Notes: a model not told the origin generated them from the letters alone. A stretch of DNA of 64,000 nucleotides from Alphaproteobacteria bacterium (GCA_020049775.1 JAGVLO010000006.1:2666-66665); one strand, 5' to 3'; positions 1,719-54,594 are shown, counted from the stretch's first letter. A program made the numbers and translations.

Positions 1719-3134
1719 ATGGTGAAAGCAATACATCTCTCCGCACATGGCATTATACCCGAACCGGAACTATTTTTCGGGGGCATGAAAAAGGATACTC
1801 ACCCATTGCGCGGGTTGCGCAATCATGGCCCCTATAGCATGACACATGGATATCCTGCACAGGTCAGGATGGCCTGCATAGCCCCACAAGGAAAACTCAA
1901 TAAACTGACAGGACTTATTACCGAACTAAATGGGGTACATAAGCCAAGGGAAGCAACGAATTATTATATCGATTACCCAGGGTTCCAGGTTGCATACCGT
2001 ATTCAGCTTGCCCAAGCCGGTACCGGCCTCAATATCGAATTACCGGCCAATTGCAGCCAGATTGTGCAGCGGAAGGATGGAAGCGCGCTCGTACAGCAGC
2101 TTTATCACGCCATAAGCCAGTTATCGGCATCCCGCGCCTCTTTTGACGTATTGCTGCTATATCTTCCCGCTGAATGGGAAAGCTGTTTTGAATATCCTGG
2201 GTTCAATTTGCATGACAGCATAAAGGCAAGGCTGGCTGGCCTGCGTATACCCATTCAAATTATCACCGATACCGCTTTTACACGGCAATGCCGGGCTAAC
2301 GTCATGTGGGGAATAAGCGTCGCTATCTATGCCAAGGCTGGCGGCATTCCTTGGAAATTGGCGCAACTTGACAGAGATGAGGCCTATATAGGCATTAGCT
2401 ACGCGATTAAACAGGATGCAACTGGTGTGCAGTATAGCACCTGCTGCAGCCAGGTTTTTGATCCCGACGGCACAGGGTTTGAGTTTGTCGCTTATGACAC
2501 ACGCGACTACATCACCGAAAAAGGAAATCCGTATTTAAGCTACCAGGAAATGCAATCCGTCCTCTCCCGCAGCCTGATGATATATCAAAATGGACATGAT
2601 GGCAGGAAGCCAAAGAAAATCACCATTCACAAAACATCAGACTTTAAGGAGGATGAAATCCAAGGCGCATTTGACGCCTTCTCCGAAGACACAGAAATTG
2701 AGCTTGTACAAATTGTCCGGGGCACTTCATGGCATGGGATAAAAATTGACCCAGCAAGAATACTTGGCGGTAAAGCCAAGCCAGCAGGGTATCCCTTAGA
2801 TAGAGGGTGTTACCTGCCAGTGAGCGCCAATGAAGCGCTGTTATGGACACAGGGAAGCGTAAACGGTGTTAATCCGCAAAAGAATCAGCCAGTTTTCAAA
2901 GAAGCCGCGCTAAAACCAATGCCATCGCCCATCCTGATCCGCAGATTCTCCGGCAGTGGCGGCTGGTATGATACCTGCTCCAGCATATTGGGGCTAACGA
3001 AAGTGGATTGGAATAATAACACGCTGTACAAAACGCTCCCCGTAACGCTTGTTTATTCGCAGCGCTTCGCCAGCGTGGTCAAAAATTCTCCGGATATCGT
3101 AAACGATATCTATAACTACCGCTTCTTCATGTAA
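1719..3134 (+). CDS. Short prokaryotic Argonaute (MID-PIWI only, predicted catalytically inactive).
   Basis: 471 aa, too short for N/PAZ domains. PIWI signature ...[12 protein letters not shown]...[18 protein letters not shown]... is present. The strand that carries the first catalytic Asp in active Agos reads YIGISYA (Ser, not Asp). Tightly coupled to the upstream SIR2-APAZ gene. Confidence 0.8.
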
Positions 3135-3258
3135 AATGGCCAAACCGAAACGAAATGCCCTATTGCGTTTGTGGCTAGAATTGCGCCGGGCCTTCGCCGC
3201 CCGCATAGCGTGAGCGGGGGAAGAACCTAAAAATGGCTGGATATGGCCATTACTAGCA

Positions 3259-3272
3259 CTGACAAAACTGAC
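3259..3272. repeat. Copy 1 of the 14-mer CTGACAAAACTGAC, immediately downstream of the primase stop.
   Basis: Exact match to 4869..4882 and the exact reverse complement of 4897..4910. A nearby TGTCAGT (about 3294-3300) forms a further inverted pair with ACTGACA. Confidence 0.8.
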
Positions 3273-3276
3273 AGAG

Positions 3277-5805
3277 CTACGTTTTGGCAGTATTGTCAGT
3301 GCCGGGCTGGCGGGTGTTGGCCTTTTCATGTGCCTGGCCCTTTAGTTTTGGATTGATGAGATAGGTAGTGGTATTCCTGCCGCCTTTTGTTGCGGCGTGC
3401 CGTTGACGCTCTGCAAGCCAGCCTAAGCGTACCAACTCGTCGCAGGCAGCTTCGGCAAGTTCCTGTTCGTTTAGGCCCTGCCAGCCTTTTCGGTATAGCG
3501 CCCGGATGGTAAAATTATCCTCCAACTCGCCTTTGCCGATCTTTTGCGCTAGCGCGGCAGCGGCTTGGTGCGTCATGTCGGTGGCCATATGATAGATGCG
3601 CTTGGCGTGTTGCTCCAGGTAATCGCACCAGGCGATGGCAAGCGCGGTGGCTTCGCTGGATACAGGCCCGCTGCCTGTATCGTCGGCAATGCGGATGATA
3701 TGGAAGATTAGCGCCAGCGCGGGCATCAGTTTACGGTACTTGGTAAGATGCTCCAGCAATAGACCGTCCTCCGCACCGCGCAGCTTTTCGATTTCTAGGC
3801 GGATCAGCCATTCGTAGAATAATTCCTGGGCGTCGTCGGCGAAACGGTAGAAAGGCGGGCGCTTATCGTCGGCAACGGTTGCGCCATGCTCAAGGAAATT
3901 AAGGGCGGCCAGCGCATTAAAAATAGCATCGACGCGATCCTTGGCGAACATATTACCTTTTCTATCCACCAGCTGCCAGTGCTTGCGTTCGTCTGGCATA
4001 ACCAATAATTGGAAGCGCTGGATCAGCCCGTCATTGCCGATTTCTTTCATTCCCTGATGCAGATAGGTGCTGAGCCTGCCGGGTTGCGTGCTGCCCAGGA
4101 TGGAGAGGCAAACATTCTCGGTAAAGATGGTGCCGCGCCCGATGCGGTCGGTGATATGGCTGCCAAAGCCATTCCATGATTCCAGGAAGAATGCGCGGTC
4201 ACCGGCATGGCCTTCTTTCTCCCAGGCTTTGAGCAAGCCAATCAGCTCGTCGCGGAATACCAGCATGCCGTGCGGGTTGACGGACAGCAGGTCGCTTAAC
4301 TTTTCCACCGTTGCGTCATTAGTATGGTAGCGCTTCCATTTCGGCTCTTTGGGAAATTCCAGACTGCTGTATTCCCTCTGCAATTCCTCTAGGGATTTTG
4401 CACCGTTCTTCCCCTTGGCATGATCGGCGATTTCCTTGAGGACTTGCTCCTCCTTTGCCTTGGCGACATGTGCTTCCAGCTTAAATTCCTGCTGCGCTTT
4501 CTCGTAAGCTTCCTTGCTTTCCATTTCCAGCTTGCGGATAGGGCGTAGCGTTTCGGAAAGCACTGGCGATTTTAAGGTGCTGGGCCTGCCGATAATTGCA
4601 CCCCACAGGTTGGGAACGATAAACCAGTTATTGTCCTGGCGCTTTGGGCGGATAGAGCAGCGCGCGCCGATCAGCCCGCCGATGGTGACGATGCTGCTGG
4701 CCACCACGTAATCGATGGGGCATTGCATGCGCTCGGATACATCCACTGCCCATGCGCGCAGTGGCTCCGGTATCATTGCCGGGTCGAGTGGCGGTACTGG
4801 CAGTAATTCCTGTTTCACCGGCTGCGGATCAGGCCAGGCATTTTTATCGGATAGGCCCGGTTCACCAACTGACAAAACTGACGAAACCATAGTTGTGTCA
4901 GTTTTGTCAGTGCGTGGATTGGCCTTGCCTGAGTTTATGCCACTATCAATCGTTCGCTTCGTTTCGTTTTGATCCAGCCCCAGCGCGAAGGCGACCGCCT
5001 CCAGCTTGCTGCGCACTTCCTGCTCATCCAACCCCTGGGCGACCAGCTGGCCGAGGGCAAAGGCCGATTTATTCAGCTGGTCATTGCGTGAGCCGTTGGC
5101 AGCTTGCATCAGCGTAGCAAGTTCGTCTTGCAGCGCCGCACGCAGGTACGCTTCGCCTTTTCCTTGTGATGCAGCATCGCCAAAATCCAGCGCAGCTGGC
5201 TTAGGCTTACTGACCAGAGCAAGAAGCCAGGACGGTGCATCAGCAATTACCTGATCCCATGGCGATAGCTGCCAGGCATACGCATGATGCGGCGGATCGG
5301 GATGGATAGAAGGTGGCACGACCACGTAGCCGCCATTACCGCGCACATCGATGTCCGGCATTGGCGTGCCATCCACTGCTTTCTTGCTGAGATTGCGTAT
5401 CTCGGCATCGGCAGGATAACGGAAATAGAGATGCCTGCCCTTGGTCGTTTGCACGCATACGGTTTCAGGCAGTGGCCCATATTGCAATTCGTATTCCTGT
5501 AGAAAAGCCTCTCCAGCTGGTCCATCAATATCCAGCACGAAAATGCCGGATATGGTGCCGGTGACAATGCCGACATTATAATTACCCGCATCCCACACTG
5601 TACGGTCTTCCTCAGAGGGGCGCTTCCCCTGATATTCTAACCAACTTGCCAGCGCGGGATGTTTGCTTTGCGGTCTCAATGGTATCGGGCACCAGCCCAG
5701 CGCATGGTAGGCGGTGAACTTACCATGCGTTAGTGCCTCCGGGGTGCTATATGACCATGATGGCAGGCACGCCTGCACAGATTGCAAGTCGCTCATGCGC
5801 TCCAC
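3277..5805 (-). CDS. Bifunctional primase/polymerase (Prim-Pol N-terminal domain) fused to a DUF3987/D5-like helicase-type C-terminal domain. Island replication protein.
   Basis: N-terminus GWCPIPLRPQSKHP...NVGIVTGTISGIFVLDIDGP...GRHLYFRY...DVRGNGGYVVVPPS is typical of Prim-Pol. A long C-terminal half has a P-loop-like GRPSTLKS. GTG start. Confidence 0.75.
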   Translation of the reverse strand: MERMSDLQSVQACLPSWSYSTPEALTHGKFTAYHALGWCPIPLRPQSKHPALASWLEYQGKRPSEEDRTVWDAGNYNVGIVTGTISGIFVLDIDGPAGEAFLQEYELQYGPLPETVCVQTTKGRHLYFRYPADAEIRNLSKKAVDGTPMPDIDVRGNGGYVVVPPSIHPDPPHHAYAWQLSPWDQVIADAPSWLLALVSKPKPAALDFGDAASQGKGEAYLRAALQDELATLMQAANGSRNDQLNKSAFALGQLVAQGLDEQEVRSKLEAVAFALGLDQNETKRTIDSGINSGKANPRTDKTDTTMVSSVLSVGEPGLSDKNAWPDPQPVKQELLPVPPLDPAMIPEPLRAWAVDVSERMQCPIDYVVASSIVTIGGLIGARCSIRPKRQDNNWFIVPNLWGAIIGRPSTLKSPVLSETLRPIRKLEMESKEAYEKAQQEFKLEAHVAKAKEEQVLKEIADHAKGKNGAKSLEELQREYSSLEFPKEPKWKRYHTNDATVEKLSDLLSVNPHGMLVFRDELIGLLKAWEKEGHAGDRAFFLESWNGFGSHITDRIGRGTIFTENVCLSILGSTQPGRLSTYLHQGMKEIGNDGLIQRFQLLVMPDERKHWQLVDRKGNMFAKDRVDAIFNALAALNFLEHGATVADDKRPPFYRFADDAQELFYEWLIRLEIEKLRGAEDGLLLEHLTKYRKLMPALALIFHIIRIADDTGSGPVSSEATALAIAWCDYLEQHAKRIYHMATDMTHQAAAALAQKIGKGELEDNFTIRALYRKGWQGLNEQELAEAACDELVRLGWLAERQRHAATKGGRNTTTYLINPKLKGQAHEKANTRQPGTDNTAKT
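4869..4910. repeat. Perfect 14-bp inverted repeat CTGACAAAACTGAC-N14-GTCAGTTTTGTCAG inside the primase ORF, in the linker between the Prim-Pol and helicase-like parts.
   Basis: Read directly: arms at 4869..4882 and 4897..4910, 14-nt spacer. Same 14-mer as 3259..3272. Confidence 0.85.
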
Positions 5806-36581: not shown

Positions 36582-36617
36582 CATCGACTTTTGCAGCCCT
36601 TTGTTTATAATAGCCGA
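36582..36617 (+). promoter_or_regulatory. Candidate promoter with TATAAT 6 nt before the ATG (possible leaderless transcript).
   Basis: TATAAT at 36606..36611, agccga, then ATG 36618. TCGACT -35-like element at 16-17 nt spacing. Confidence 0.3.
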
Positions 36618-37919
36618 ATGCCTGAAATGATTCCGGAACCCTCTGAAACAGATAGAATCAAGCCAGATTTATCACTGGTGCATGACATTTCGTTCGCCGA
36701 TAAGAATACTTTCACTCACCCCTATCTGTCGCATTACACAAAGGATAATAAACATCTTTATTATCTTGGCGTAAAACATGGCAAAGATTTTGAAACACGC
36801 AGCCATGACATGATACTGCAGGCGGTTTCAAAGCATAAACCCCAGCTTATTGTGATTGAGGGATTGGCAACAGAAGCGGGAATCTCGCCTTCATTCGGCC
36901 TCGACCCCCAAAAACCCGGATCGGTGTCGCGGTTTTTAAATCATGAAGAAAACATCCATACCGCAGAACTCGCCCGCTCAAAAAAGATACCGTTTATAGG
37001 TGGTGAGCCTTCGTCCAAGGCAGTCTTTGAGGCGCTCGATAGGCAAGGCTATTCTAATAAAGAAACAATGGCAGCTTATTTATTACGCAATATTTCCGTA
37101 TGGAAACGCAAAGGAGGGCTTAACAAGGACATCCTTCACCAGCAAGCGGATGTATTTCTCTCAAAGGACCCTATCTTCAAACATATTCCAGAGGAAGACA
37201 GGCTTACATTTGATGAGTTTAAATCATGGTATGATTCTCATAAACACGAGCTGGGCAACAAGGATATGCTGGACGTCGTTGCGGCAGATACCAATTACAA
37301 CGGCAGACCTGATGCTAATTATTTCCAGCGTCTAACTAAAATAATGGACAGGGTTCGCGACGATCACCTGATCAATGTAATTGCCGATTCTGCCTCCGAG
37401 TATGATAAGGTCATGGTTGTGTATGGGAACGCACATCAGTTTGTATCTGCACCTGTTTTTGAAAAAATGTTTGGTGGCGAGGCGCAGAAGGAAATGCTCA
37501 CCCTGAACGAGGTGACAGCGCCTGATCCCAAAGCAGCGCCAGCAGCTTCCGTTCAAAATGCTGAAGATGTATCACAGCCGGAAAAAGCTTATACTCTGCC
37601 AAAATGGCTCAAATATGGGAGCATCGCATTGCTGGGCGCGGGCATCACGACATTGACATTAGGTGCTGCGCCCCTGGTAACGGCTGCATTGCTGGTTGGT
37701 AGCGGCATAGCATTTACTGGCAGTAAAGTGACCGAAGCTAAACCACAGCCTATGACAGCAGTGCCGGAGGTGGCTAATAACTCATCAGATTCTTCTGCAG
37801 AAAAAGATGCTGTATTGCCGAAAGCGGTTGAGCCAAATCCAAGCCGCAAGGATGGGAAATCATGGGTGGCCAGTTCAAGCCCGCCGCCTGCTGAACAGCA
37901 ACTTCCCAGATCATTATAA
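36618..37919 (+). CDS. Hypothetical protein, C-terminally membrane-anchored; possible TraB/GumN/Tiki-superfamily domain (weak).
   Basis: YYLGVKHG (GxxH-like), LIVIEG, two C-terminal hydrophobic helices. Start ATG 36618 or TTG 36591. Confidence 0.35.
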   Translation: MPEMIPEPSETDRIKPDLSLVHDISFADKNTFTHPYLSHYTKDNKHLYYLGVKHGKDFETRSHDMILQAVSKHKPQLIVIEGLATEAGISPSFGLDPQKPGSVSRFLNHEENIHTAELARSKKIPFIGGEPSSKAVFEALDRQGYSNKETMAAYLLRNISVWKRKGGLNKDILHQQADVFLSKDPIFKHIPEEDRLTFDEFKSWYDSHKHELGNKDMLDVVAADTNYNGRPDANYFQRLTKIMDRVRDDHLINVIADSASEYDKVMVVYGNAHQFVSAPVFEKMFGGEAQKEMLTLNEVTAPDPKAAPAASVQNAEDVSQPEKAYTLPKWLKYGSIALLGAGITTLTLGAAPLVTAALLVGSGIAFTGSKVTEAKPQPMTAVPEVANNSSDSSAEKDAVLPKAVEPNPSRKDGKSWVASSSPPPAEQQLPRSL

Positions 37920-37947: not shown

Positions 37948-37975
37948 AAACCCCACAACCCTTGCGGGTGTGGGG
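37941..37975 (-). terminator. Intrinsic terminator of GC-rich orphan gene 1.
   Basis: On the minus strand: CCCCACACCC-gcaa-GGGTTGTGGGG (10-bp GC-rich stem, one bulge) followed by TTTCTGTTTT. It begins 30 nt after the stop. Confidence 0.7.
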
Positions 37976-38004
37976 TTCTGCTGCTCATTGCTGAGCAAGT
38001 TCGA

Positions 38005-38334
38005 TCACTTGTTGCCGATCTCCAAGTAGAAGACGGCGCAGGGCACGTCGCCGTGCTTGTCCGTGATGTCGGTCAGGCCGTCCTTGTAGACGACCATGTT
38101 GACGACGTGCGGCATGAACAGCTTGTACATGCTGGGCATGAGGTTCGTGGCGAACGCCAACTCCTCGCGGGTGGGCGTGTTCCACGACATGGCCACCCAG
38201 CACTGGTAGCCGCTGTGGCGCACCACGGCCATCACCTTCTTCTCGCCCGCCTCGTCCAGCGCCTTCTTGACGGCGTTGAACGTGGTGAACTCCGGGATCG
38301 GCAGCGCGTCGAACTCTTTCGTCTCGGTGCTCAT
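38005..38334 (-). CDS. Orphan 109-aa protein of unknown function; compositionally foreign (GC3-saturated).
   Basis: ATG with AGAGGA 8 nt upstream and a TGA stop. By manual reading all codons but one (AAA) end in G/C. Local GC is clearly >60% against a mid-40s background. No family recognised. Confidence 0.7.
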   Translation of the reverse strand: MSTETKEFDALPIPEFTTFNAVKKALDEAGEKKVMAVVRHSGYQCWVAMSWNTPTREELAFATNLMPSMYKLFMPHVVNMVVYKDGLTDITDKHGDVPCAVFYLEIGNK

Positions 38335-38348
38335 GGCATCGATCCTCT

Positions 38349-38382
38349 ACCACATTTTAGTGTGGTGTTTAGGACAGTGTCC
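38349..38382 (-). promoter_or_regulatory. Two short palindromes in the leader/promoter region of orphan gene 1 (candidate operators).
   Basis: ACCACA-ttttag-TGTGGT (38349..38366) and GGACA-G-TGTCC (38372..38382), 15-50 nt upstream of the ATG. Confidence 0.35.
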
Positions 38383-38447
38383 GCAAGTTGTTTTCCTCCC
38401 TGACAAGAGAGGATAGTAAAGAAACAACTCGGAACATCCCCAATTTA

Positions 38448-51870: not shown

Positions 51871-52677
51871 CTAGCGCTCAGCTACTGCTGTGCCTACTTC
51901 CTTTTTGGCTTTCATAACATCGCCACGCAATGTACCGTCTTTTTCACGCTTTTCGACTTCTTCAAGTATGTTGCCGGTAAATTTGCCGATGGTCGCTGCC
52001 ATAAACAGGTCCAGGCGATCGGTGGAAACATCTTTTATGCCTACCAATTTGAGGCCTCTGTTTATAACTTCTTTAATAAGAAATTCCTGTGCGCCCTGTG
52101 CGGCGACGGCCATTTCTGCCAGCGGCTTGGCGGCGATATTGGCAGCGATGGTTGCCATTTTTGGGCCGATGACCTCACTCAGCTTTGCCTGTATAGCCAG
52201 TGATATAATCGGTGTTACGATGGCCAGCTTTAATTGTTTGCCTACGCGGTTATAGGCCTCCAGTGCCGCTTCTTCCTGTTCGGGTGTAATTTTACGGTCT
52301 TCTTTTGGAACGTCATTCAGTTTGGCATATTCGCTTAAGGTTTTCAGGTCGTCTTTAAATTGTTGATTCAGCACGTTTGGCAGCGCAGCAAGAATTGCAA
52401 TGCCTATTTGTTTGCTATCAAGCCCAACCCTCGTATCTTTTGCTATTTCGTCAGCAGTTGGTGCGTCGGACTCTGAAATTTCTAACGGCGACGCGCGATT
52501 CAATAGCGCGATGCGGTTGCTTCCTCCCATATGGTTATGCGGCAGTGAATTTCCACGGTTTTGCATCATCAGGAGTCTAAGGTCGTCATCGTCAGATGTA
52601 ATGGACTGAGTGCTATTCATGGCTCTTTGGACTAAAGACAAGGCCGCCTGTTCTTTGGATTTGGCGAAGGCAATCAT
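51871..52677 (-). CDS. Hypothetical protein.
   Basis: 268-aa ORF, helical-looking. No family recognised. Confidence 0.4.
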   Translation of the reverse strand: MIAFAKSKEQAALSLVQRAMNSTQSITSDDDDLRLLMMQNRGNSLPHNHMGGSNRIALLNRASPLEISESDAPTADEIAKDTRVGLDSKQIGIAILAALPNVLNQQFKDDLKTLSEYAKLNDVPKEDRKITPEQEEAALEAYNRVGKQLKLAIVTPIISLAIQAKLSEVIGPKMATIAANIAAKPLAEMAVAAQGAQEFLIKEVINRGLKLVGIKDVSTDRLDLFMAATIGKFTGNILEEVEKREKDGTLRGDVMKAKKEVGTAVAER

Positions 52678-52940
52678 GGAGGGTTCTCCCGTTCGAGTGG
52701 TTTTTATCAGCTATATTACCCTCAAATATGGTAAATAAATATTAATGAAATGTGGAATTATTGGGCGTTTCCAAGGGGCCACTGGAATAAAAAACCTATA
52801 ATATACAGAATTATAATAATATTTTTATAAATGCTTTAGGAGATGAGTGCCTTTTCTTTAGAACGGAGCTGCTTATTTTTATTGCATCGCAGCATAATCT
52901 GGTATAGATAGTCGCCAATCCAAAGAGAGTAACTAAGCTT

Positions 52941-53849: not shown

Positions 53850-53992
53850 CCATGCGCTTTACGCATGACTCGCATGTAATAATATTAATAGTTAGTTTAT
53901 TTGGCATAGCTATAGTGACGGCATGTAAGTGAGTGCTTTTGTACCACTTCTTTGTTGGGTGCAATGCCCGATAATCCTCCCTGTTATAGCTT

Positions 53993-54021
53993 GCCGAGCC
54001 TTCGTGGCTCGGCTTTTTTTT
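53993..54021 (+). terminator. Intrinsic terminator downstream of the LysR-type gene (A-run on the other side; could act bidirectionally).
   Basis: GCCGAGCC-ttcg-(T)GGCTCGGC followed by TTTTTTTT. Confidence 0.7.
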
Positions 54022-54036
54022 ATCCAGATTTTGGGC

Positions 54037-54063
54037 AAAAAAAACCCCACCTTGCGGCAGGGA
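54037..54063 (-). terminator. Intrinsic terminator of GC-rich orphan gene 2.
   Basis: On the minus strand: CCCTGCC-gcaa-GGTGGGG (7 bp with two G-U pairs) followed by TTTTTTTT. It begins ~28 nt after the stop. It shares the CCCCAC...CTTGCGG core with the cassette-1 terminator. Confidence 0.6.
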
Positions 54064-54090
54064 AAAACCGGAGTTTTTTTTGATGTCACA

Positions 54091-54456
54091 TCACACCGTC
54101 TGCGGGACGTAGTCCGAGTAGAACGCCATCAGCTTGTCGCCGACGGAGAGGTACTCGACCTTGTTGTCGTCGCTGCGGTACACGAGGTGGCCGCTGTTGA
54201 CCATCTCGCCGAGCGCCTGAATGACGCCGCGGACGAAGGGACCGCTGACCATCTGGTAGTAGATGGGGTGCGCGTTCTGCGGGCAGGCCTCCTTCATGTA
54301 CTTGAGGAAGTCCTGCGCCTTGAACTCGCCGAACACGTCGTTGTTGCGCTCCGCGAGGAAACGCACGACGTACGCGGCGACGCACTCCTTCTCACCCTTC
54401 TGGAACGACGAGTTGTTGAACACGCAGCGGACCTGGCTCGGGATGAACGTCGACAT
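54091..54456 (-). CDS. Orphan 121-aa protein of unknown function; compositionally foreign (GC3-saturated).
   Basis: ATG at 54456 with GGGAG 8 nt upstream and a TGA stop. By manual reading all codons but about four end in G/C. The in-frame upstream extension to 54567 has host-like composition and overlaps the putative -10. No family recognised. Confidence 0.7.
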   Translation of the reverse strand: MSTFIPSQVRCVFNNSSFQKGEKECVAAYVVRFLAERNNDVFGEFKAQDFLKYMKEACPQNAHPIYYQMVSGPFVRGVIQALGEMVNSGHLVYRSDDNKVEYLSVGDKLMAFYSDYVPQTV

Positions 54457-54565
54457 CTGCAACACTCCCATGAATGGGGGGTGGTAGCGGTGTGTGAAAA
54501 CACCGCAGGAAACAAACGCTGGATGCACACGCAACCAACGGAAACCCAAAGGGTTTAACATGCTC

Positions 54566-54594
54566 ATTATAGATTAATAATGGTTAACAAACAA
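54566..54594 (-). promoter_or_regulatory. Near-consensus sigma70-type promoter reading toward orphan gene 2.
   Basis: Minus strand: TTGTTT-17 nt-TATAAT (-35 at 54594..54589, -10 at 54571..54566). It gives a ~100-nt leader containing hairpins AAACCC-ttt-GGGTTT (54542..54556) and GCGGTGT-N6-ACACCGC (54487..54506). Confidence 0.4.

Follow-up and report, generated by a model that had tools for sequence, protein, structure and literature searches.

Almost exclusive use of G/C-ending codons in a small, apparently native alphaproteobacterial gene suggests selection at synonymous sites

The tuf and ribosomal-protein genes of E. coli, which are top-expressed, combine extreme codon bias with slow synonymous evolution, and the 5' untranslated region (UTR) of ompA carries a 5' stem-loop that stabilizes its mRNA. 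Genes of outlying composition, in turn, are routinely taken as foreign DNA. Here we describe a gene that invites comparison with all three, cassette 2, located at 54091..54456 on the minus strand of a 64,000-nucleotide stretch of alphaproteobacterial DNA (GCA_020049775.1 JAGVLO010000006.1:2666-66665; hereafter the window), between the genes of a LysR-type regulator and an aspartate aminotransferase (AAT). Cassette 2 is an extreme outlier in its G+C fraction at third codon positions (GC3), yet it is ancestral at its locus. We favor, with modest confidence, the reading that this monocistronic gene is native to an uncultured alphaproteobacterial clade and restricted to that lineage, and that its G/C-ending codons are held by selection on synonymous sites.

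The 366-nt open reading frame (ORF) encodes an acidic winged-helix protein of 121 aa, which begins MSTFIPSQV and belongs to a family without annotation. Its G+C fractions at the first, second and third codon positions are 0.56, 0.33 and 0.96; the first two (GC1 and GC2) resemble host values. Only four sense codons end in A or T (GGT twice, CGT and ATT) and the stop codon is TGA, in line with the roughly four exceptions counted in the initial annotation. That annotation had also expected a compositional outlier sharing its anomaly with a second gene, and computation bears this out. GC3 of 42 long ORFs in the window averages 0.566 +/- 0.075 with a maximum of 0.71, placing cassette 2 about 5 standard deviations beyond, and a phase-specific GC scan of the whole window returned one further high-GC3 gene, cassette 1 (38005..38334, minus strand, 109 aa, GC3 0.98), which uses the same codon dialect. 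A segment at 58726-58957 was considered as a third anomaly and rejected: its signal, a strong three-base GC periodicity, comes from first codon positions, not third ones, within the C-terminal tail, rich in Ala, Glu and Lys, of ribosomal protein L25 (gene at 58739-59491, minus strand). As had been noted, the GC-rich ORF is embedded in AT-richer DNA, with a local GC of 0.63 against 0.385-0.46 in the flanks and sharp boundaries, in a source genome of ~50% GC. The additional reading frames listed earlier (53929..54558 on the plus strand, 54086..54385 and 54294..54530 on the minus strand) do exist, as a trivial by-product of the lack of A-ending codons in cassette 2. Likewise, we rejected the plus-strand ORF over cassette 2 as an antisense overlapping gene, since without TTA, CTA and TCA codons its frame is bound to be free of stops, and the ORF crosses two terminators.

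The genes surrounding cassette 2 encode thioredoxin reductase, the LysR regulator, AAT, an FKBP-type protein and YchF. Their products are 72-89% identical to those of genes in uncultured alphaproteobacterial metagenome-assembled genomes (MAGs) labelled Rickettsiales or Alphaproteobacteria, in which the order trxB-lysR-AAT-fkbp-ychF is kept. Members of the cassette 2 family lie between the 3' ends of AAT and lysR in three independent assemblies: L085 (Logan) holds P0002, L098 (JGI) holds P0003 within 20 kb of perfect synteny with the window, and L100 (ENA) holds P0005 and then P0008 in tandem downstream of AAT. These homologues in the same gap contradict a lineage-private insertion. Across the syntenic copies the non-coding parts align, namely the promoter, the leader hairpins (a 5'-proximal AAACCC-n3-GGGTTT and GCGGTG...CACCGC), the Shine-Dalgarno (SD) sequence and the terminator, and the promoter, leader and terminator are host-like and AT-richer. 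The proteins encoded at this site are 31-43% identical to one another in a star-like pattern, compared with 80-88% for AAT and LysR. Nonsynonymous divergence (dN, Nei-Gojobori) is 0.52-0.58 for the family genes and 0.11-0.14 for their neighbors, so that the family protein appears to evolve 4-5 times faster than the neighbors.

The codon bias recurs in these homologues. GC3 of the family gene compared with the mean of its neighbors is 0.96 versus 0.57 in the window, 0.77 versus 0.38 in L085, 0.79 versus 0.52 in L098, and 0.78 and 0.92 versus 0.63 for the two genes of L100. The homologues in the AAT-lysR gap thus exceed neighbor GC3 by 0.15-0.39, and further family members do so in L099 (0.83 versus 0.55), L103 (0.88 versus 0.69) and L083 (0.78 versus 0.60). 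Altogether, 8 of the 11 family genes examined stand above their neighbors by a margin of at least 0.15. The initial annotation had held that syntenic orthologues with native codon usage would speak against an anomaly; syntenic homologues do exist, but their codon usage is non-native, and because they too are GC3-elevated the bias looks like a maintained property and not like a recent import. Synonymous sites are saturated between the genomes that carry cassette 2 (synonymous divergence, dS, of neighboring genes > 1), and thus a GC3 excess left by a single old transfer should have decayed.

Cassette 1 provides a measure of constraint at synonymous sites. L106 carries a syntenic orthologue (cassette region 135-670), 82% identical and convergent with the orthologue of a 442-aa gene of the window. 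Both cassette 1 copies have a GC3 of 0.98, beside 0.46 for the L106 neighbor. Between the window and L106, cassette 1 shows a dS of 0.11 and a dN of 0.11 (dN/dS ~1), whereas the adjacent gene shows a dS of 1.24 and a dN of 0.16, an 11-fold reduction of dS in cassette 1. Third bases at conserved degenerate codons differ at 5 of 81 positions in cassette 1 versus 118 of 292 in the neighbor, and the amino-acid changes concentrate near residues 55-77. The non-coding flanks of cassette 1 have diverged between the two genomes, and we therefore reject a recent transfer of the whole unit. Comparison of the two copies shows that the wobble bases of cassette 1 are constrained.

The conventional explanation for such composition is a recent horizontal gain from a GC-rich donor, with codon usage not yet ameliorated. 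A GC3 of 0.96 in a 50% GC genome with sharp composition boundaries would fit such a gain, as would the representative GTDB relatives that carry no copy of the gene at the site, the nature of the lysR-AAT gap as a variable spot for accessory ORFs, and the position of one family member next to a TraG/TrwB-type coupling protein gene. Nevertheless we consider this origin quite improbable. The syntenic homologues of three assemblies retain a conserved, host-like and AT-richer promoter, leader and terminator. Codons AAG, GAG, TAC, TTC, AAC, CAC, ATC, CTC and GTC are enriched 2-4 fold in the family genes, but Gly and Arg codons stay host-like, which together with the host-like GC1 and GC2 (0.56 and 0.33) disfavors a GC-rich donor. 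Contigs bearing homologues have a GC of 0.445-0.56, none being GC-rich, and tblastn searches against PLSDB plasmids and GenBank phages returned no match to the family. Furthermore, the cassette 1 orthologues have kept their GC3 while the adjacent gene accumulated its high dS. The codons of cassette 2 are best described by the usage of its family elsewhere (log-likelihood -73.7, compared with -122.4 for its own genome and -91.3 for the GC-richest relatives), and cassette 1 is likewise best fitted by the codon usage of the winged-helix family in other genomes. Thus the GC3 bias appears to be a property of a gene class kept by selection, and no relic of a recent transfer from a GC-rich donor.

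Replacement within the clade is a second alternative. Alleles or paralogues could be exchanged recurrently, the conserved flanks serving as recombination arms; the sources could be GC-richer sister lineages or a tandem array with differential loss, and GC-biased gene conversion could raise GC3. The star-like divergence at a single site (31-43% identity), the tandem pair of L100, the occurrence of the family at several chromosomal sites, the span of genomic GC in the clade from 0.40 to 0.58, and flanks that are better conserved than the ORF are all in keeping with replacement. We regard it as unlikely, given that the GC-richest relatives use AAA (53%), GAA (62%) and TAT (50%), unlike the cassette dialect, that GC enrichment ends at the start and stop codons, leaving the supposedly recombining flanks not GC-enriched, and that in cassette 1 divergence is greater in the flanks than at synonymous sites within the ORF.

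Ordinary translational optimization of a very highly expressed gene, with G/C-ending codons being the optimal codons of the lineage, is a third alternative. We took the genes of AhpC and L25 as proxies for high expression. The near-consensus -10 box, good SD and strong terminator of cassette 2 agree with such optimization, and the 11-fold lower dS of cassette 1 is as expected for top-expressed genes. AhpC also tops the native genes on a codon adaptation index (CAI) built from family codons, and C-ending Phe, Asn and Ile codons are enriched in AhpC and L25 of the window; this partial agreement in C-ending pyrimidine codons is seen in the window genome only. The choice of Glu codons, however, is opposite: GAA accounts for 22 of 23 Glu codons in AhpC and L25 of the window and for 29 of 31 in L098, whereas the two cassettes of the window use GAG in 15 of 15. 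Moreover, AAG, TAC and GTC are not preferred in AhpC and L25 of L098, and the adaptation scores are separated by a wide gap (0.90 versus at most 0.55). A search of the literature on optimal codons in alphaproteobacteria gave nothing specific. These comparisons make translational optimization improbable, and the selection on wobble composition in cassette 2 is probably not translational. Judged by its codons, the cassette bias seems to amount to "no A/T at the wobble position" and not to a match with the tRNA pool. In keeping with this rule, the window cassettes have no A/T runs of 4 nt or longer, and native genes have ~6.8 runs of at least 5 nt per 366 nt. We also considered avoidance of ACA sites, as for MazF-type enzymes, and rejected it, as ACA is not depleted in the cassettes.

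An assembly chimera or contamination, which the initial annotation had raised against its own reading, is extremely improbable. The composition jump is the only observation in its favor. On both sides of the cassette lie syntenic host genes, AAT and lysR, which are ~800 bp apart, and because Logan, JGI and ENA assemblies, which are independent, repeat this gene order together with a homologous ORF, leader and terminator, an artefact is unlikely.

Cassette 2 carries its own expression signals, all on the minus strand, and those described initially were recovered. A -35 box TTGTTT (54589..54594), read from the sequence, and a -10 box TATAAT (54566..54571) are separated by a 17-nt spacer; TTG is kept in 4 of 5 homologous upstream regions and the -10 box of homologues reads TATAAT, TATACT or TATCAT. 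This promoter, conserved in relatives, is absent from the listing of a promoter scan because its -35 box matches at 3 of 6 positions only. It is followed by a structured 5' leader of ~105 nt (type 1, 54457..54565), supported by a consensus fold, a minimum free energy (MFE) fold and a covariance model. The leader comprises hairpin P1 (54542-54556), a few nt from the predicted 5' end, P2 (54517-54540), hairpin P3 (54487-54506) and a weak helix P4, in which a C-run (54475-54483) pairs with the SD. The consensus fold of five homologous leaders contains 32 pairs with compensatory changes in 14; the window leader has an MFE of -38.7 kcal/mol (z = -2.6), and both folds reproduce the two hairpins noticed initially, P1 and P3. 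The SD, GGGAG (54465..54469), stands 8 nt 5' of the ATG, and homologues have GGAG in the same place. The helix over the SD hints at translational control of cassette 2. Downstream, 28 nt beyond the stop codon, an intrinsic terminator (54037..54062) consists of the stem CCCUGCC-GCAA-GGUGGGG (54062->54045) followed by U8 (T8 at 54044-54037), a shape that is kept in L085, L098 and L100. The covariance model of the type-1 leader, R1, scores 105 bits at the window and finds only 5 syntenic copies in ~412 kb of related sequence; neither R1 nor R2 yielded additional leader copies across ~414 kb of such sequence. Searches of Rfam gave no match over the cassette 1 or cassette 2 leader at the gathering threshold or at E <= 5, and ROSE and cspA thermometers and riboswitches were not matched over either leader. 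A metagenome scan for the leader hairpin AAACCCNTTGGGTTTCCGT returned 11 loci, all of which were dismissed as chance matches lacking a family ORF or a syntenic gene.

In L100, each of the tandem genes (3129-3488, P0005, GC3 0.78; 3737-3928, P0008, GC3 0.92) is equipped with a type-1 leader and a terminator of its own, and the end of the contig cuts off the second gene.

The proteins of cassette 1 and cassette 2 are unrelated (a kinship was rejected at an hhalign probability of 0.5%), and their leaders differ as well. Cassette 1 is preceded by a type-2 leader (38369-38441, minus strand) and followed by a terminator hairpin (37949-37977, minus strand); its ORF lies 230 bp from a tRNA-Thr gene. 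The type-2 leader is branched, of the form TCCnAGTTGTT...AACAACTTGGGGACAC-GTCC, with an outer stem TCCnAGTTGTT/AACAACTTGGGGA around two hairpins and then GGACAC-GTCC. The same branched leader stands in front of genes of the winged-helix family at ppx-ppk in L099 and L103-L105, and this sharing ties two unrelated protein families into a single class of expression unit. Copies lie at 38369-38441 (minus strand) in the window, 157-236 in L106, 241-319 in L099 and 2912-2985 in L103; the type-2 leader has no Rfam match and may be an undescribed cis-regulatory RNA.

In a word-indexed protein search the query itself was the sole match to the cassette 2 product. An exhaustive phmmer search (HMMER; 1.8 billion representatives) returned 21 further clusters of 90-145 aa, with 31-45% identity and E values down to 7e-20. 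Common to the family are the motif F-x-PSQV-x3-F-x-NS-x-FQKGEKEA-x-AA at the N-terminus and F-Y-x2-Y at the C-terminus; about 40 N-terminal residues are kept and the middle is poorly conserved, residues 51-80 and 91-100 (the helix 2-3 region and the wing) being the least conserved. AlphaFold2 run on the single sequence was uninformative (predicted local distance difference test, pLDDT, 46), and with the family alignment it gave a pLDDT of 95.3 and a predicted template-modelling score (pTM) of 0.89. The model contains helices at residues 21-37, 47-56, 64-71, 75-87 and 107-114 and strands at 91-95 and 101-105, forming a helical core, a beta-hairpin wing and a C-terminal helix, which is winged-helix topology. 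The best Foldseek matches in PDB and BFVD are all winged-helix proteins (AdcR/MarR, MukE/F, ORC, PadR and phage helix-turn-helix proteins). Searches of Pfam, NCBIfam, PHROG, PADLOC and PDB sequences gave nothing significant for the family, and among curated winged-helix families (MarR, PadR and others) no match was found at or near thresholds in Pfam, NCBIfam and PDB sequences. Based on this model we treat the product as a new winged-helix family. The initial description as an orphan cassette thus holds in so far as cassette 2 is an autonomous transcription unit between host genes; with 21 homologous clusters and a confident winged-helix model, it is no orphan. All 21 family members are acidic (isoelectric point 4.6-6.9), and the family lacks the basic recognition helix or wing and the conserved DNA-contact surface seen in winged helix-turn-helix regulators. 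The acidity leads us to lean weakly toward binding of a protein partner, as opposed to the role of a classical DNA-binding repressor.

Family members occur at several other chromosomal sites, between ppx and ppk and near clpS, rpoH, htpG and gshB; JANYES01, one of the GTDB representative MAGs without the gene in the AAT-lysR gap, has a family member between ppx and ppk. At L081 699-2533 and L082 1844-3678, a TraG/TrwB-type type IV coupling protein gene follows the family member P0023 after 54 bp in the same direction, on a contig that also has a transposase-like ORF; the GC3 of P0023, 0.62, is near the value of its neighbors. Around cassette 2 itself, at 53.85-54.66 kb, we found no integrase or transposase, tRNA target or flanking direct repeats, in agreement with the absence of repeats and mobility genes reported initially. 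The distribution suggests that the family is patchy and mobile over evolutionary time and that the window copy is no private insertion.

At the ppx-ppk and clpS sites, winged-helix family genes adjoin a second unannotated family of ~210-250 aa (L099 802-1554; L103 435-1145 and 3493-4131; L101 8179-8883). It has the motif PRIASVEDP...RGY..Y...W and a lysine-rich C-terminus; Pfam does not match it, and the window contains no homologue. Pfam likewise gave nothing for proteins beside family members at other sites.

How might selection on synonymous sites act? In the reading that we favor, that of a native gene, a sigma-70-type promoter would drive a transcript whose conserved structured leader of ~105 nt opens with a hairpin near the 5' end and closes with a weak helix over the SD, and a strong intrinsic terminator would end it. 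Synonymous-site selection would keep G/C-ending codons in opposition to the mutation balance of the genome and, in part, to native translational preference, and we infer that it acts on the mRNA itself. RNase E is an AU-directed endonuclease. A coding body whose A/U runs never exceed 3 nt, with a hairpin protecting the 5' side and a terminator hairpin the 3' side, would offer RNase E few entry points, and resistance to AU-directed endonucleases and to end-dependent decay may yield a long-lived, strongly expressed message. Alternatively, avoidance of A/T may be directed at AT-directed silencing proteins.

A broader proposal, which we put forward tentatively and hold to be possible though doubtful, is that the clade has a distinct class of "privileged" small genes. 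These would encode unrelated proteins, those of the winged-helix and cassette 1 families, share conserved structured leaders and strong terminators, and use a private G/C-wobble dialect held by strong synonymous selection independent of, and partly against, native translational preference. Their design would operate at the mRNA level, e.g. by evading AU-directed RNases or AT-directed silencing, and the genes might be co-regulated and encode rapidly evolving proteins that perhaps interact with the host or with mobile elements.

Several observations weigh against selection on a native gene. Four distant members (L081, L084, L086 and L101) show little or no GC3 excess. The dS of cassette 2 against its syntenic homologues is saturated (~1.0-1.6), and for this reason the evidence for synonymous constraint is carried over from cassette 1 by way of the common codon dialect. 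The proxy for high expression consists of just two genes per genome, "highly expressed" and "stable mRNA" are both read from sequence signals only, and in the window's own leader the SD is only weakly occluded. The known winged-helix proteins retrieved by Foldseek are weak matches (E >= 0.008; template-modelling score 0.4-0.55). Finally, since the clade's 20-odd GTDB representatives (L001-L024) carry no copy of the gene at the AAT-lysR site, gain, loss or exchange must have occurred, and allele replacement from relatives could still, if with the low probability given above, be the source of cassette 2.

The surroundings of both cassettes contain further features. The lysR-AAT gap of L001-L022 varies from 9 to 2140 bp and holds differing accessory ORFs, among them ~150-aa proteins, a 343-aa repeat protein, a Crp/Fnr-like regulator and a 546-aa protein. 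Directly downstream of lysR, at ~53905-54021 on the plus strand of the window, lies a small RNA (sRNA)-like element conserved in at least 13 lineages, some without the cassette. Its parts are a -10-like TATAGT, a 5' hairpin that is variable and shows covariation, the invariant ATAATCCTCCCTGTTATAGCT (whose loop, CCUCCC, resembles an anti-SD) and, before a T-run, an intrinsic terminator (53993-54013); in Rfam, SorX matches it best, at 32.5 bits, under the gathering score of 46.6. Between trxB and lysR, an ORF of 268 aa (51871-52677, minus strand) has no Pfam match. As trxB and lysR are only ~90-125 bp apart in L001 and L098, this ORF looks like a lineage-specific insertion; beside it, 52700-52900 is AT-rich, with a flanking GC of 31-36%. 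The 442-aa ORF convergent with cassette 1 (36591-37919, plus strand) is 74% identical in L106, includes a hydrophobic segment, is rich in Pro and Ala at its C-terminus, and has no Pfam match.

Our reading, if true, would make cassette 2 a clean natural example of selection that acts on codon choice at the mRNA level and not through translation, coupled to a conserved, so far undescribed leader RNA and to a fast-evolving winged-helix family that lacks annotation. It also cautions against composition-based calls of horizontal gene transfer in uncultured lineages. Cassette 2 resembles horizontally acquired genomic islets in its atypical composition, sharp boundaries and variable intergenic spot, but it differs from them in being syntenic in relatives, in its conserved regulatory flanks, in the lack of a donor, integrase, tRNA target or direct repeats, and in an anomaly that persists over deep divergence. 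Its product resembles winged-helix domains (MarR/AdcR/PadR, MukE/MukF and ORC) in predicted topology, and its best Foldseek matches are winged-helix proteins. Unlike MarR-type proteins, the family has a conserved N-terminal extension, and it differs from the domains named above in being acidic, in varying most at the presumed recognition-helix and wing positions, and in having no significant sequence or profile match in Pfam, NCBIfam or PDB. With the ompA 5' UTR, cassette 2 shares a conserved hairpin a few nt from the 5' end, here a predicted one, and a long structured leader before the SD; the two have no sequence relationship, and the coding body of cassette 2 is in addition stripped of A/U runs. 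Like the tuf and ribosomal-protein genes of E. coli, the cassettes combine strong expression signals and nearly a single codon per amino acid with, in cassette 1, a low dS, but unlike them they use codons that are not those of the native proxies (GAG versus GAA).

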